A DNA stretch of 63,332 bases, filler included, from Reclinomonas americana ATCC 50394 (GCA_048213135.1; 12 parts of 12 records of this genome joined end to end with filler, not necessarily neighbours in it); one strand, 5' to 3'; numbered from the whole stretch's first letter, positions 28,940 through 38,938 are shown. Numbers and translations are program-made. The notes: generated by a model from the sequence alone, not told the origin.

Positions 28940-31900
28940 CCTGACTCGTGCCACCCGTGATTGTGTACGTCAGTGTCTGACCCGTGTTGACATCCGTTGA
29001 CGCCAACGAGCCAATCACTCCATTCACAGCAAGTGGTGGCGTGTACGTCGACGATGACAACGTCGGTGCAGTTGGAGCCACGTTCGCTGATGCAGTCACC
29101 AACGTCAGTCAAAATGACAGACAAAAAAAGAGACGAGAAACACACACCTTCGCTGATTGTGAATGTCGCACTCGCCGTCAGGATGCCATCACTCACTTGC
29201 ACAATCACTTGCAGACTGTTACCAGTAAGGCCAGCGACATTCGATCGCAAGCTCGTTCCACTGATGTTGAATGATGATGCGTTGGAGCCGCCCGTGATCG
29301 CAAATGTCAGTGTCTGACTCGTGTTCACATCCGTCGACGACAGCGTGCCAATCACTCCGTTCACGGCGAGAGGCGGCGTGTATGCCGACAATGACAGCGT
29401 CGGTGTCGTCGGCGCCACATTGACTATCATGGCACAGCAAAGTCAGCGCGAGTTAACGCAGAACGAAGACAATGCAGCACACAACACACCTTCGCTGATC
29501 GTAAAGGTTGCACTCGCAGTGCCACCCGCTCCATCGCTCACTTGCACAGTCACTTGCAGGTTGTTGCCAATCAAGCCTGCCAGACTGGATCGCAAACTGG
29601 TACCACTGATATTAAACAATGCAGAGTCAATGCCGCCCGAGATAGCGTACGACAACGTCTGGCCCGTGTTGGGGTCGGCAGACGACAAAGTGCCAATCAC
29701 TCCATTCAGCGCAAGCGGTGGTGTGTACGTTGTCGACGACAGCGTCGGTGCAGTCGGATTCACGTTGGCTGAGACGAACACTTGTGTGAGTGACAGGGCA
29801 CACACGAATCGAACGGACAAGAAACAAAGTCATACCTTCGCTGATCGTGAATGTAGCACTCGCTGTCAGCGTTCCGTCACTGACCCGCACAATCACTTGC
29901 AGATTGTTGCCAGTGAGGCCTGCCACACTGGATTGCAAGCTGGTACCGCTGATGTTGAACGACGCCTGATTCGTACCGCCCGTGATCGTGTACGTGAGCG
30001 ACTGACCCGTGTTGGGGTCAGTTGACGCAAGCACGCCAATCACTCCATTCACGGCGAGTGGCGGCGTGTACGTCGACGACGAAAGGGTCGGTGCAGTCGG
30101 TGCCACATTGACTGTCCCAGCCAGGAATGAGAGTCGCACAGCAGATAGACCAAGAACATGACAAGGACAACAAACCTTCGCTGATCGAAAACGTCCTGCT
30201 CGCCGTCAGGGAGCCATCGCTCACTTGCACAATCACTTGCAGGCTGTTGCCAGTCAGACCAGTAACATTGGATCGCAAGCTTGTTCCGCTGATGTTGAAT
30301 GATGATGCGTTGGTGCCGCCCACAATAGTGTACGTCAGAGTCTGACCCGTGTTGACATCAGTCGACGAAAGAGTGCCAATCACTCCGTTCACGGCGAGCG
30401 GTGGCGTGTACGTCGACGAAGACAGCATCGGTGTCGTCGGTGCCACATTGACTGTCACAAAATATGATAGATTAGATGCGTACGTTACCAACAAAGAAAC
30501 GAGACAAGAAGCGCACCTTCGTTGAACGTAAACGTTGTACTCGATTGCAGAGTACCGTCACTCACTTGTACAATCACTTGCAGGTTACTACCAGTGAGAC
30601 CAGCCACATTAGACCGCAAATTCGTGCCGCTGATGTTGAACGATGCCGAGTTCGCGCCGCCCGTGATTGTGTACGCAAGTGTTTGACCCGTGTTTGGATC
30701 AGTCGACGACAATGTGCCGACCACTCCGTTCAGAGCGAGAGGAGGCGTGTATGTCGATGATGACAATGTCGGTGCAGTCGGTGTCACGTTGGCTATATGG
30801 ATTTATACAAGTCTCATGTTAGCACTGCACGTACTTGGAAAACGCAGGGACATCCCAATTGCATACCTTCGCTGATCGTGAATGTCGATGTAGCGGTCAA
30901 TGTTCCGTCGCTGACCCGCACAATCACTTGCAGGTTGTTGCCGGTGAGGCCTGCCACATTGGACTGCAGACTGATGCCGCTGATGTTGAACGACGCAGAG
31001 TTCGTGCCACCCGCGATCGTGTACGTCAACGTCTGACCCGTGTTGGGGTCGGTAGACGCCAGCGTGCCAATGACGCCGTTCAATGTAAGTGGCGGTACGT
31101 ATGTCGATGATGACAGCGTCGGTGCAGTCGGTGCCACATTGGCTGTCACACGAGTTTTTTTAAAAAAGAGTGCACGAGAGACACGCACGCAGACAACAGC
31201 ATACCTTCGTTGATCGTGAATGTCGTGCTCGCAGTGCCGCCTGCGCCATCGCTCACTTGCACAGTCACTTGCAGGCTATTGCCAGTCAGACCAGCCACAC
31301 TTGACCGCAAACTGGTGCCGCTGATGTTGAACGACGCCTGATTCGTGCCGCCCGTGATCGTATACGTCATGGTTTGACCCGTATTGACGTCGGTCGACGC
31401 CAGAGTACCAATCACTCCATTCAGTGCAAGCGGCGGAGTGTATGCTGATGAAGACAGGGTCGGTGCGGTCGGTGGCACATTGACTAATGTGCTCGATCGC
31501 GTAAGTTGCACGGCCCAAACAAACAAATGGTACAACTAACTTATCAAACCTTCGCTGATCGTAAGCGTGGCGCTTGCCGTCAGGGTTCCGTCGCTGACAC
31601 GCACAATCACTTGCAGACCACTGCCAGTGAGGCCAGCCACATTCGAGCGCAAACTAGTGCCGCTGATATTGAACGACGCTGCGTTGGCGCCGCCCGTGAT
31701 CGTGTACGTCAGCGTCTGGCCCGTGTTGGGGTCGTTTGAAGCCAGCGTGCCAATCACTCCATTCAATGCAAGTGGTGACATGTACGTCGTCGACGACAGC
31801 GTCGGTGCAGTGGGTGCCACATTGACTGACGACAACGGAAGTTCAGTACACAGAGAAGAAGAGAAAACATGGAACGAAAGAGAGAGAGCATGAGCGATTC

Positions 31901-37089: not shown

Positions 37090-38938
37090 CCCGCCCTGCC
37101 ATCAACCTCCACCGTCGATTAACGAACAGACCTTCGTTGATGAAGAAAAGGGTGCTGGCCGTGAGAGAGCCGTCGCTCACTTGCACAGTCACTTGCAAGC
37201 CATTGCCGGTGAGGCCAGCCAGGTTCGACCGCAAGCTGGTGCCACTGATGTTAAAGGATGCAGAGTTGGCACCGCCGGTGATCCTATAGGTCAGAGCCTG
37301 GCCTGTGTTCACGTCCGTCGACGACAGTGTGCCAATGACGCCGTTCAAGGCCAGCGGAAACGTGTAGGTCGACGTCGACAGGGTCGGCGTAGTTGGCGCC
37401 ACATTTGCTGCAACGATACGCGAGAATGTGAGATGTTACTATCAGAAACCAGTGGGTGTCTTATTGTGCGCAGGGGGACGCACTTTCACTGATCGTAAAC
37501 GTCGTGCTTGCCGTGCCGCCCATGCCGTCACTTACTCGCACAATCACTTGCAAGTTATTACCGGTGAGGCCAGCCACATTCGACCGCAAGCTGGCGCCGC
37601 TGATGTTGAACGACGTCTGATTCGTGCCACCAATGATCGTGTACGTCAACACCTGACCCACATCAGGATCAGTTGACGCCAGCGTGCCGATGACTCCATT
37701 CGAGGCAAGCGGCGGAATGTAGGTGGCCGCAGATAGAGTGGGTGCGGTGGGCACGGTGTTGGCTGCGCAGAAAAATCAGCAGTATGGTGACAGGAGCGCA
37801 GGCACATGGTGCACACCAATAATGAGGTTTGCAGTGCCGACTCTTTGGTATGAAGCCGTCGAAGGCCTGCAGCAGCGAGAGGGAGAAGGAGGGAGACAGA
37901 GAGAGAGGGAGGGAGAAAGGAGGAGGGAGCCAGAGAGAGGGAGAGACAGAGAGAGAGAGACAAAATGCGAGAGAGAGAGAGAGAGAAAGAGAGAGACAAA
38001 GTCAGCAACGCGCGTTACACAGACCACAAATGCAAAACTCATCGACAATACGAACCATCGCACGCAAACAATATAGGTGGTGCCAGCGGCCGCTGTGGCC
38101 ATATTGATAGTCAACGCCACCGTCGTGTACGGGCTCACGGGAGCCGCCGAGCTCGTCGTGCCAACAGGCGTTGGTGCCGAGCACGCCGTGCTGGAGACAA
38201 TGTAGGCCGCCGAATCACCGGAAGCATCCTGCAAATTGGTGCCGCTGATCGTCATTGCCACTCCGTTGGAGGATTTGATGGAGGTCGGTGCAAAGCTGGT
38301 GTAGGTTGGCGGCGAGGAAACCACAATGGTGGAGCTGATGGGACCGGTGGCGCATCCGGGCACGGTGAACAGCAGCGTGAACGAGCCCGTGGCAGTGAGG
38401 CCGAGCGTGGCAAAGGTGGCAAGACCCTTGCCGTCGGTCGTCGCCGTCACAGTGCCGCTCAGCGTACCCGTCCCAGTCTGGATGGATGCCGTCACCACAA
38501 CTCCGCTGACTACCTTGCCGTCGGCGTCGAGAAGCAACAGCACCGGCTGCGTGGCAAAGGCAATGCTGGTGGCCGCGCGCGCCGACGGCTGCGTCTGTAT
38601 AGCCAGCGTGGGGGCGCGGTACCGCACAATGACAATGCCGGAGCCGCCATTGCCGCCGGCGGAAGCAGGCCCATCTTTGGAGTCGCCGCCGGCGCCACCA
38701 CCACCGCCACCCGTGTTGGCGGTGCCGGGCAGACCGCTGAGCTTGCTGTTGAACGAGCCGCCGCCGCCGCCGACGCCGCCGCTGCTGTTGACGCCACCGA
38801 CTTGTGCGTAGCCGCCGCCACCGCCGCCGCCGCCGTAAAACGTAGCCACGCCGCTGATTGACGAGGAGATGCCGGCACCGCCGTTGCCGCCAGAGATGGT
38901 GCCGGAGGAGCCGACGGATGCAGCGCCGCCGCCGCCGC
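28940..38938 (-). CDS. Giant repetitive, probably extracellular protein: Gly-rich, Ig-like and IPT-like domains, then at least 24 cadherin-like repeats; partial at both ends, spans the gap at 33762
   Basis: Repeat consensus VNVAPTAPTLSSSTYTPPLALNGVIGTLSSTDVNTGQTLTYTITGGTNSASFNISGTSLRSNVAGLTGNNLQVIVQVSDGAGGTASTTFTISE (~92-94 aa). There is one repeat per ~280-nt exon, mostly with ~60-90-nt phase-1 introns; 21 complete and 3 gap-truncated copies were counted. Confidence 0.85.
36805..36945. repeat. 10-bp minisatellite (GCAGGAGAGT)n in an enlarged intron of the cadherin-like gene
   Basis: About 13 imperfect tandem copies. Confidence 0.85.

Follow-up and report, generated by a model that had tools for sequence, protein, structure and literature searches.

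Animal cell adhesion depends centrally on cadherin-type domains, whose history beyond the animals is patchy. The oomycete Pythium ultimum is a non-animal eukaryote described as having cadherin-type repeats without a catenin-binding domain; in that account "true" cadherins are defined by LDRE and DxND motifs, and the Pythium genes have both (PMC2926784). In animals, protocadherin-15 (PCDH15; extracellular cadherin (EC) domains 9-10) and Drosophila N-cadherin are described as having a calcium-free linker that lacks the canonical XEX and DYE/DRE motifs, as a single exception in a calcium-bound chain. The solved calcium-free linkers are bent or flexible and elastic, and calcium confers rigidity (PMC5120219). 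Long tandem arrays of domains of the type and length described here are also present in bacterial cadherin-domain proteins, such as P0009 (Stieleria), P0005 (Rhodopirellula), P0010 (Bacteroidota) and P0006 (Microvirga). Modules with phase-1 introns on both sides (class 1-1) have been described as a metazoan speciality in extracellular proteins, spread by exon shuffling (Patthy 2021, PMC8001218). Here we describe an array of cadherin-like repeats in a window of 63,332 nucleotides, the whole stretch of DNA analysed, from Reclinomonas americana ATCC 50394 (GCA_048213135.1). Each repeat unit occupies one predicted phase-1 exon, is modelled with the cadherin fold, is closest in sequence to bacterial cadherin domains and lacks most of their acidic calcium ligands.

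A profile was built from the 21 complete units and used for a six-frame scan of the whole window. As listed in Table 1, 21 full-length units (E-values of 1e-47 to 1e-52 each) and three truncated ones were found on the minus strand at 28940-37762, each of about 92 residues when complete, and the same scan found no further units elsewhere in the window. Tandem Repeats Finder gave periods of 341-351 nt across 28941-36154. One unit corresponds to one exon. The complete exons were 276 nt (n=10), 279 nt (n=10) and 282 nt (n=1) long, and all 21 were multiples of three. On the minus strand, exon ends read ...GA(A/G)(G/A)|GT and exons start after ...AG. All 22 predicted introns were GT-AG introns in phase 1, with the codon split after its first base, and their lengths were 59-90 nt, bar one of 981 nt with a short tandem repeat. 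Retention of 20 of the 22 introns would shift the frame or bring in a stop, and only two introns of 66 nt were open. The gene for elongation factor 1 gamma (EF-1 gamma) in the same window, taken as a control, has GT-AG introns with identical AAG|GT exon ends. By these predicted junctions the units have the layout of class 1-1 modules, that is, phase-1 introns on both sides of the domain and an exon length divisible by three. The original prediction, a first reading of this sequence, had placed one repeat in each symmetric phase-1 exon, and every complete exon and every intron agreed with it. Since the exons are symmetric, gain, loss or skipping of any of them keeps the frame. Like the class 1-1 modules described in PMC8001218, the units are autonomous all-beta domains of extracellular type flanked by phase-1 introns; unlike the metazoan ones, they are a bacterial-type module for which intragenic duplication alone was observed, with no evidence of shuffling into other genes. 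Keyword searches of the open-access literature, which cannot show absence, found no account of cadherin-like arrays built this way, one phase-1 exon to a unit, in organisms other than animals.

To describe the fold, unit A11 was modelled with AlphaFold2 from a 37-row alignment, in which 16 short database relatives were added to the 21 paralogous units. This second model had a mean predicted local distance difference test score (pLDDT) of 96.2 and a predicted template modelling score (pTM) of 0.85, and the five models agreed. It was compared by VIA-align with a library of 48,161 representative chains, and cadherin EC domains occupied all 50 entries shown, with Z of 9.7-11.5 and a root-mean-square deviation of about 2.1 A over 83-91 of the 91 residues. 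The top five structural matches included EC9 of PCDH15 (6eet, 4xhz, 5kj4) and DN-cadherin (3ubf, 3ubh), with Z of 11.1-11.5, and sequence identity to the structural matches was only 12-24%. In Foldseek, all rows listed for the second model were cadherins, with probability 1.00 and TMq up to 0.75. As modelled, the unit is a cadherin-fold beta-sandwich, a seven-strand Greek key superposable on solved EC domains. The non-cadherin fold that would have spoken against the original prediction did not appear among the 50 entries.

The sequence comparisons pointed to bacterial relatives. Against PDB sequences, five of the six matches of the unit profile were cadherins (CELSR1 at 5e-5, protocadherin-15 at 7e-4). 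Against 5.8 billion proteins, the profile gave 382 matches at E<=1e-3, with a top E-value of 2.6e-163 summed over repeats. The top matches were long bacterial "cadherin domain-containing" proteins with precomputed PF00028 assignments, from Planctomycetota, Bacteroidota, Alphaproteobacteria and others, and they showed 35-47% identity over nearly the whole unit (98-99%). Stieleria P0009, which scores 6e-71 on PF00028 in nine stretches, matched a single window unit at 45% identity and an E-value of 4e-14. The nearest clusters by protein language model were bacterial Cadherin clusters, at 0.95-0.96. Window and bacterial units have in common the xAPT start, GTLSxTD, TY, F-x-I-x-G and V-x-V-x-x-x-D. 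Compared with the bacterial units, those of the window have no G-x-G-D-x-D-N loop and are two residues short in the D-F-E segment, and spliceosomal introns split the window units. The bacterial style of cadherin domain that had been proposed for the repeats was thus borne out by their closest sequences, with homology to bacterial cadherin-domain repeats over the whole unit.

Closer relatives were present in short contigs of the Logan collection. A metagenome scan with the unit profile gave 11 loci, all bacterial-grade relatives at 34-43% identity, and no close eukaryote-type locus with flanks was among these 11. A length-matched search gave nine single-unit open reading frames (ORFs) from short Logan contigs at 43-63% identity, and a longer search gave two two-unit Logan ORFs, P0049 and P0066. 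The Logan relatives have the same depleted motifs, with PP in place of E-N and G-x-(T/S/R)-G in place of D-F-E, and their units stop at the ...E|G point, as those of the window do. The two-unit ORFs read through 19-24 unrelated residues where the window introns sit. Four Logan sequences (P0049, P0242, P0243 and P0245) have a Cys-Cys pair in the loop of the DXD motif, reading D-x-N-C-C-Q/E as against D-x-N-T-G-Q in the window. An unrooted tree of 113 domains was built with one unit per bacterial protein and with metazoan and oomycete units left out. It placed the 21 window and 13 Logan units on one side and the 79 bacterial units on the other, with a Shimodaira-Hasegawa-like approximate likelihood ratio test (SH-aLRT) value of 99, and an inner group joined the window units with one Logan unit (SH-aLRT 97). 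Because of the shared ...E|G ends, the spacers at intron sites and the joint grouping in the tree, the design of one exon per unit predates the divergence of the Logan relatives. Bacterial ancestry is the simplest reading of these sequence comparisons, not a proven one.

Upstream of the array, the sequence encodes a predicted head of bacterial type. The 900-nt exon has an acceptor cag|GC at 38939/38938 and a phase-1 donor A|GTTTTG at 38039/38038, and its open frame of 299 codons is predicted to be entered and left in phase 1. The domain Gly_rich_2 (PF21722) was found in it with an E-value of 5.8e-9 and 36.7 bits (cut-off 24.3), the match covering profile positions 133-226 of 226 only. A Big_1 match of 20.2 bits lay below its cut-off of 34.9, and a further immunoglobulin (Ig)-like stretch follows. 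HMMER against 1.84 billion representatives gave 2,947 matches to the upstream region, mostly via the Ig-like domain and with up to 34 copies per protein. Five of these matches were scanned, and they carry Big_1 or Invasin_D3. In the bacterial P0289, Ig-like repeats come after a complete Gly_rich_2 domain, and P0393 has Invasin_D3, Big_1, Gly_rich_2 and a C-terminal secretion sorting domain. The window exon has the Gly-rich-to-Ig junction of P0289 (...G-I-V-I-V-R-Y / A-P-x-L...), with 54% identity over 85 residues, and in our reading the N-terminus of P0289 is signal-peptide-like. Compared with these bacterial glycine-rich and Ig-repeat proteins, the window has no more of the glycine-rich domain than its C-terminal half; tblastn with P0289 and P0393 found nothing of the N-terminal half there, so the 5' end of the gene is missing. 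Among the Pfam lists shown for the unit-profile matches, none combined PF21722 with PF00028.

The array lies on two pieces of assembly. Eleven identical 100-nt linkers (N44+TTAATTAATTAA+N44) split the window into 12 pieces of about 1.4 to 16 kb each, at 12674-12773, 28840-28939, 33762-33861, 39638-39737 and seven more sites up to 61096-61195. The linker holds a stop in all frames and looks like an artificial joining device. The sequence thus does not establish how the pieces are ordered and oriented or which of them adjoin, and neighbours may lie apart in the genome. The array occupies piece A (28940-33761) and piece B (33862-39637), both on the minus strand, and both gene ends, 5' and 3', fall outside the assembled pieces. 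The original prediction had counted at least 24 repeats. That number of units was found, as 21 full and three truncated, while their presence in a single protein is not established, because an artificial linker joins the two pieces.

The pieces share a block of units. Units B3 and B5-B9 showed 89, 86, 92, 89, 95 and 91% DNA identity to A5 and A7-A11 in the same order, respectively, while most other unit pairs showed 68-80% and B4 only 73% to A6. Four introns within the block were 75-94% identical, whereas the median over all pairs of short introns was 58%, and synonymous divergence within the block was 0.13-0.44. About seven exon-intron units have been duplicated as a block. The block includes introns. 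The array has grown by exon-block duplication, and the change of length by recombination that had been suggested for this locus has a concrete instance here. Ahead of the block lie two units on piece B and five on piece A, the five including one truncated unit.

There is close to an even chance that pieces A and B do not belong to one gene and are instead paralogues, or haplotypes that have diverged strongly; in that case no single protein would have 24 units, and the count would be an artefact of stringing pieces together. The artificial linker between them recurs at 11 places, the seven-unit block is common to both at 86-95% identity, and between the truncated units that flank the linker, which are different units, no suffix-prefix overlap of 20-59 nt with at most four mismatches was found. 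The array is, however, on the same strand in both pieces, and the pieces are adjacent in the file. Simple alleles were rejected as an explanation, because the number of units before the block differs; this difference in register (two versus five) fits either internal duplication in one gene or two genes.

To compare the calcium ligands, the 21 units were aligned with a sample of 150 from the 449 full-length bacterial units of 79 proteins. The bacterial units have Asp or Glu in at least 60% of sequences at about ten columns (some 9-10 acid columns are kept, including the XEX Glu at 93%, D-x-D, D-F-E and the N-V-N-E linker). The window units are acidic at only two, D31 and D78 (21 of 21 each), which are the only acid columns conserved at 97-99% in the bacterial units. 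At the columns of P16, N33, L65 and N47, the bacterial acid frequency was 93, 81, 78 and 81%, respectively. Overall, Asp and Glu make up 3.5% of the window units versus 12.9% of the bacterial units.

Motif by motif, the replacement of PE/EN, LDRE/DYE and DxNDN ligands and the usual change of DxD to DxN, both named in the original prediction, held in nearly all units. PPL occupies positions 16-18 in 19 of the 21 units, and the column of the XEX-base Glu has Pro in 19 (Phe or Ser otherwise), versus Glu or Asp in 140 of the 150 bacterial units. In the G-L-x-G segment at 64-67, G64, L65 and G67 are present in 21 of 21; the Glu column of LDRE/DYE is thus always Leu (L65), versus Glu in 117 of the 150 bacterial units, and the Asp column of LDRE/D-F-E is a gap in the window units versus an acid in 66% of the bacterial ones. 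HMMER aligned LDRE of PCDH15 to V62-A63-G64-L65 and DRD of CELSR1 to D31-x-N33, the same mapping as in the bacterial alignment. At 31-33, 19 units have D-x-N and two have D-x-D; the column of the second Asp is Asp in 119 of the 150 bacterial units. The linker reads E91-x-N1-V2-A-P in the window and (D/N)-V-N-E-A-P in bacteria and is two residues shorter in the window. Of DXNDN, the units retain the Asn and, if E91 is equated with the first Asp as in our reading of the alignment, the first acid; Val replaces the second acid in 19 of 21. By the LDRE/DxND definition used for the oomycete genes in PMC2926784, the units are not "true" cadherins, as they have neither motif, unlike the Pythium cadherins. 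Furthermore, depletion extends to 21 of 21 units, whereas the metazoan calcium-free linker is described as one exception in its chain (PMC5120219).

The residues that are kept leave room for one residual site. D31, D78, E91 and N1 are each present in 21 of 21 units and N33 in 19, all of them supplied by the linker and the second domain, and we take N1, D31, N33, D78 and E91, from classical cadherins, to be the residues that would build calcium site 3. The linkers appear to have lost sites 1 and 2, one residual site is possible, and calcium independence of the array is plausible. A filament in which each linker keeps one functional calcium site (N1, D31, N33, D78 and perhaps E91) and which is calcium-stiffened is a tentative alternative, well short of an even chance. 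The constancy of these residues would fit it, as would the conservation of D31 and D78 in bacteria and the published motif scheme, in which the kept residues fall in DXD, XDX-top and DXNDN, the motifs on the second-domain side (PMC5120219). D31 and D78, however, may be kept for the fold, and the splice donor also restricts the E91 codon (GAA/GAG, then G|GT), which supplies the AAG before GT. As the calcium-free linkers solved to date are bent and elastic, a flexible bead chain is expected in place of a stiff stalk, as long as glycans do not make it rigid, and "stalk", the word used in the original prediction, may be too rigid a term for the array.

The composition of the units agreed with the earlier description of very Thr/Ser-rich repeats that nearly all carry an N-glycosylation sequon. 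Ser and Thr make up 32% of the window units, and N-x-S is present at positions 52-54 in 21 of 21 window units versus 34 of the 150 bacterial units. Lys, His and Cys are all absent from the 1,923 residues of the 21 complete units, though Asn makes up 8.1%. Asn codons are one base change from Lys. Lys accounts for 2.0% of the homologous bacterial units and for 0.7% of the Logan relatives, in which Cys reaches 1.1%. The absence of all three residues could be relevant to resistance against proteases or to the chemistry of a matrix.

The best explanation, which we consider probable, is an intron-rich eukaryotic gene, or two close relatives, built of ligand-depleted cadherin-fold exons of bacterial affinity and encoding a surface or secreted filament. 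A glycoprotein filament outside the cell is suggested because the domain types are those of bacterial surface and secreted proteins, Ser and Thr reach about a third of residues and N-x-S is invariant. A bead filament, probably glycosylated, would be secreted or held at the surface for adhesion or as a surface coat, and it would carry a bacterial-type head of a glycine-rich domain plus Ig-like domains. Its linkers would bind at most one calcium ion, in a site-3-like pocket of N1, D31, N33 and D78, and the chain would be more flexible than a canonical cadherin rod unless stiffened by glycans. An EC domain is roughly 4.5 nm long, and 24 units would span about 100 nm if extended. The family may derive from a bacterial gene that was taken up and afterwards acquired phase-1 introns at domain borders. 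A role in prey capture, which had been raised for the array, found no support in the data.

Several points weigh against this explanation. The first AlphaFold2 model, made from the 21 paralogous units alone, was poor (pLDDT 78); its best VIA-align Z was 5.9, with cadherins in 23 of the 50 entries shown and other beta-sandwiches in the rest, and Foldseek gave nothing below an E-value of 0.3 for it. Even for the second model, Foldseek gave no match at E<=1e-3, the best being 3.6e-3. In the Pfam and NCBIfam scans, which were made on single units, no unit reached the gathering cut-off of the Pfam Cadherin family (PF00028, 28.8 bits); three of the 21 had PF00028 at E<=1, with a best value of 0.059. 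Big_9 matched more units than PF00028 did (9 of 21, best 2.9e-5), and He_PIG and Cadherin_CELSR2_9th matched 7 and 5 of 21, respectively, below their cut-offs. NCBIfam gave nothing above cut-off, only CshA_fibril_rpt at an E-value of 0.11 on a two-unit read-through ORF. The bacterial origin is drawn from an unrooted tree in which 70 of the 109 inner branches are open and metazoan and oomycete units are absent. The assignment of residues to calcium site 3 is carried over from classical cadherins. Splicing of the array is read from predicted junctions, and secretion from the domain types alone, as the gene ends lie outside the window and no signal peptide, transmembrane segment or anchor is within it. 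Pieces A and B may belong to separate paralogues, in which case no single protein would span the whole array.

It is distinctly unlikely that the protein is a carbohydrate-binding (lectin-like or carbohydrate-binding-module-like) surface or secreted protein whose units themselves bind polysaccharide, rather than a protein-protein adhesin. The nearest relatives of the units are bacterial cadherin-domain proteins, and polysaccharide binding is reported for some bacterial cadherin-like domains; the related literature includes the Saccharophagus degradans genome paper (PMC2386152). Rhizobium Rap proteins with cadherin-like domains are described as interacting with exopolysaccharide (PMC9298526). 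The Rap protein is described there as calcium-binding, however, and the window units are depleted of most acidic ligands. None of their residues was identified as sugar-binding, and nothing separates this explanation from an adhesin.

The exons are coding. The proportion of nonsynonymous differences (pN) was lower than that of synonymous differences (pS) in all 210 pairs of complete units, with means of 0.14 and 0.57, respectively, and a median dN/dS of 0.14; it is this excess in every pair that identifies the exons as coding. Variability at the first, second and third codon positions was 0.12, 0.08 and 0.33, respectively, highest at the third, and no in-frame stop was present in the 1,923 codons of the 21 complete units. 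The array is a gene under purifying selection and not a decaying repeat. A decaying or unexpressed repeat (pseudogene or mobile-element remnant) or bacterial contamination, to which the missing gene ends and a Helitron-like element on the neighbouring piece might point, is hardly credible given 21 units without in-frame stops, intact GT and AG in 22 of 22 introns and a dN/dS of about 0.14. A bacterial contaminant was rejected, as the introns are frame-breaking GT-AG introns styled like those of the EF-1 gamma gene.

The intron-exon structure preferred here, the array of ligand-depleted cadherin-fold exons with its upstream exon, is given with coordinates in Table 1.

Table 1. Features of the repeat array and its upstream exon, in positions of the whole window.
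Feature	Position	Strand	Remark
Upstream exon, 900 nt, predicted phase 1-1	38039..38938	-	Gly-rich C-terminal half, Big_1/invasin-like Ig domain, further Ig-like domain
Predicted 276-nt GT-AG intron, upstream exon to B1, with (GA)n tracts	37763..38038	-	Only nearby GT phase-matched to the phase-1 acceptor of B1
Unit B1 exon, 279 nt	37484..37762	-	Unit profile and GT-AG borders
Unit B2 exon, 276 nt	37132..37407	-	Unit profile and GT-AG borders
981-nt GT-AG intron, holds 10/22-nt tandem repeat	36151..37131	-	
Unit B3 exon, 279 nt	35872..36150	-	89% DNA identity to A5
Unit B4 exon, 279 nt	35531..35809	-	
Unit B5 exon, 279 nt	35162..35440	-	86% DNA identity to A7
Unit B6 exon, 276 nt	34814..35089	-	92% DNA identity to A8
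Unit B7 exon, 279 nt	34461..34739	-	89% DNA identity to A9
Unit B8 exon, 276 nt	34118..34393	-	95% DNA identity to A10
Unit B9, N-terminal 62 residues only, cut by piece end	33862..34051	-	91% to A11
Artificial 100-nt linker, N44+TTAATTAATTAA+N44	33762..33861	.	Between two assembly pieces
Unit A0, C-terminal 43 residues only, cut by piece start	33630..33761	-	
Unit A1 exon, 276 nt	33291..33566	-	
Unit A2 exon, 279 nt	32945..33223	-	
Unit A3 exon, 279 nt	32600..32878	-	
Unit A4 exon, 282 nt	32246..32527	-	Acceptor AG 3 nt further upstream than in other units
Unit A5 exon, 279 nt	31908..32186	-	
Unit A6 exon, 276 nt	31550..31825	-	
Unit A7 exon, 279 nt	31205..31483	-	
Unit A8 exon, 276 nt	30867..31142	-	
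Unit A9 exon, 276 nt	30517..30792	-	
Unit A10 exon, 276 nt	30176..30451	-	
Unit A11 exon, 276 nt	29836..30111	-	Unit used for structure model
Unit A12 exon, 279 nt	29490..29768	-	
Unit A13 exon, 276 nt	29148..29423	-	
Unit A14, N-terminal 48 residues only, cut by piece end	28940..29086	-	

Other features were observed elsewhere in the window. The EF-1 gamma gene lies at 10493-12201 on the minus strand, with GT-AG introns of 78 nt and about 310 nt. Its best database matches showed 43-59% identity, none above 59%, and the named ones were amoebozoans, fungi and others; by these matches the host would be without a close sequenced relative in the collection searched. On the piece neighbouring the array, three large ORFs at 14783-23838 on the minus strand encode a PIF1-like helicase (14783-19762), an OTU protease domain (19710-21083) and DUF6570 (21742-23838), a combination typical of Helitron-type transposons. 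An ORF at 740-1585 on the plus strand matched the C-terminal part of Endomembrane protein 70 (EMP70/TM9SF) with an E-value of 1e-28. Purine-rich tandem repeats with periods of 19 and 57 nt and (AG)n are located at 39102-39542, just 5' of the upstream exon, and the 10/22-nt tandem repeat within the 981-nt intron is located at 36811-37037. At the end of the piece preceding the array, at 28664-28839, a pure (GT)40 microsatellite passes straight into a (GTC)32 array.

The locus is a clean case of a bacterial-type cadherin-fold module in an intron-rich eukaryotic gene, with a phase-1 intron at every domain border. First-domain calcium ligands have been lost in every linker, and not in one exceptional linker as in protocadherin-15, so that the array is a natural test of a cadherin chain without calcium sites 1 and 2. 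The duplication of the seven-unit block is a datable example of array growth by exon-block duplication. In a bolder scenario, which we regard as unlikely, a eukaryote outside the animals and their nearest kin took up a bacterial adhesin gene, put phase-1 introns exactly at each of its domain borders and grew, and possibly varied by exon skipping, a calcium-independent, lysine-free, glycan-coated filament, independently of animal cadherins. If this were true, "metazoan-style" exon modularisation would have acted on a bacterial cadherin-type module.

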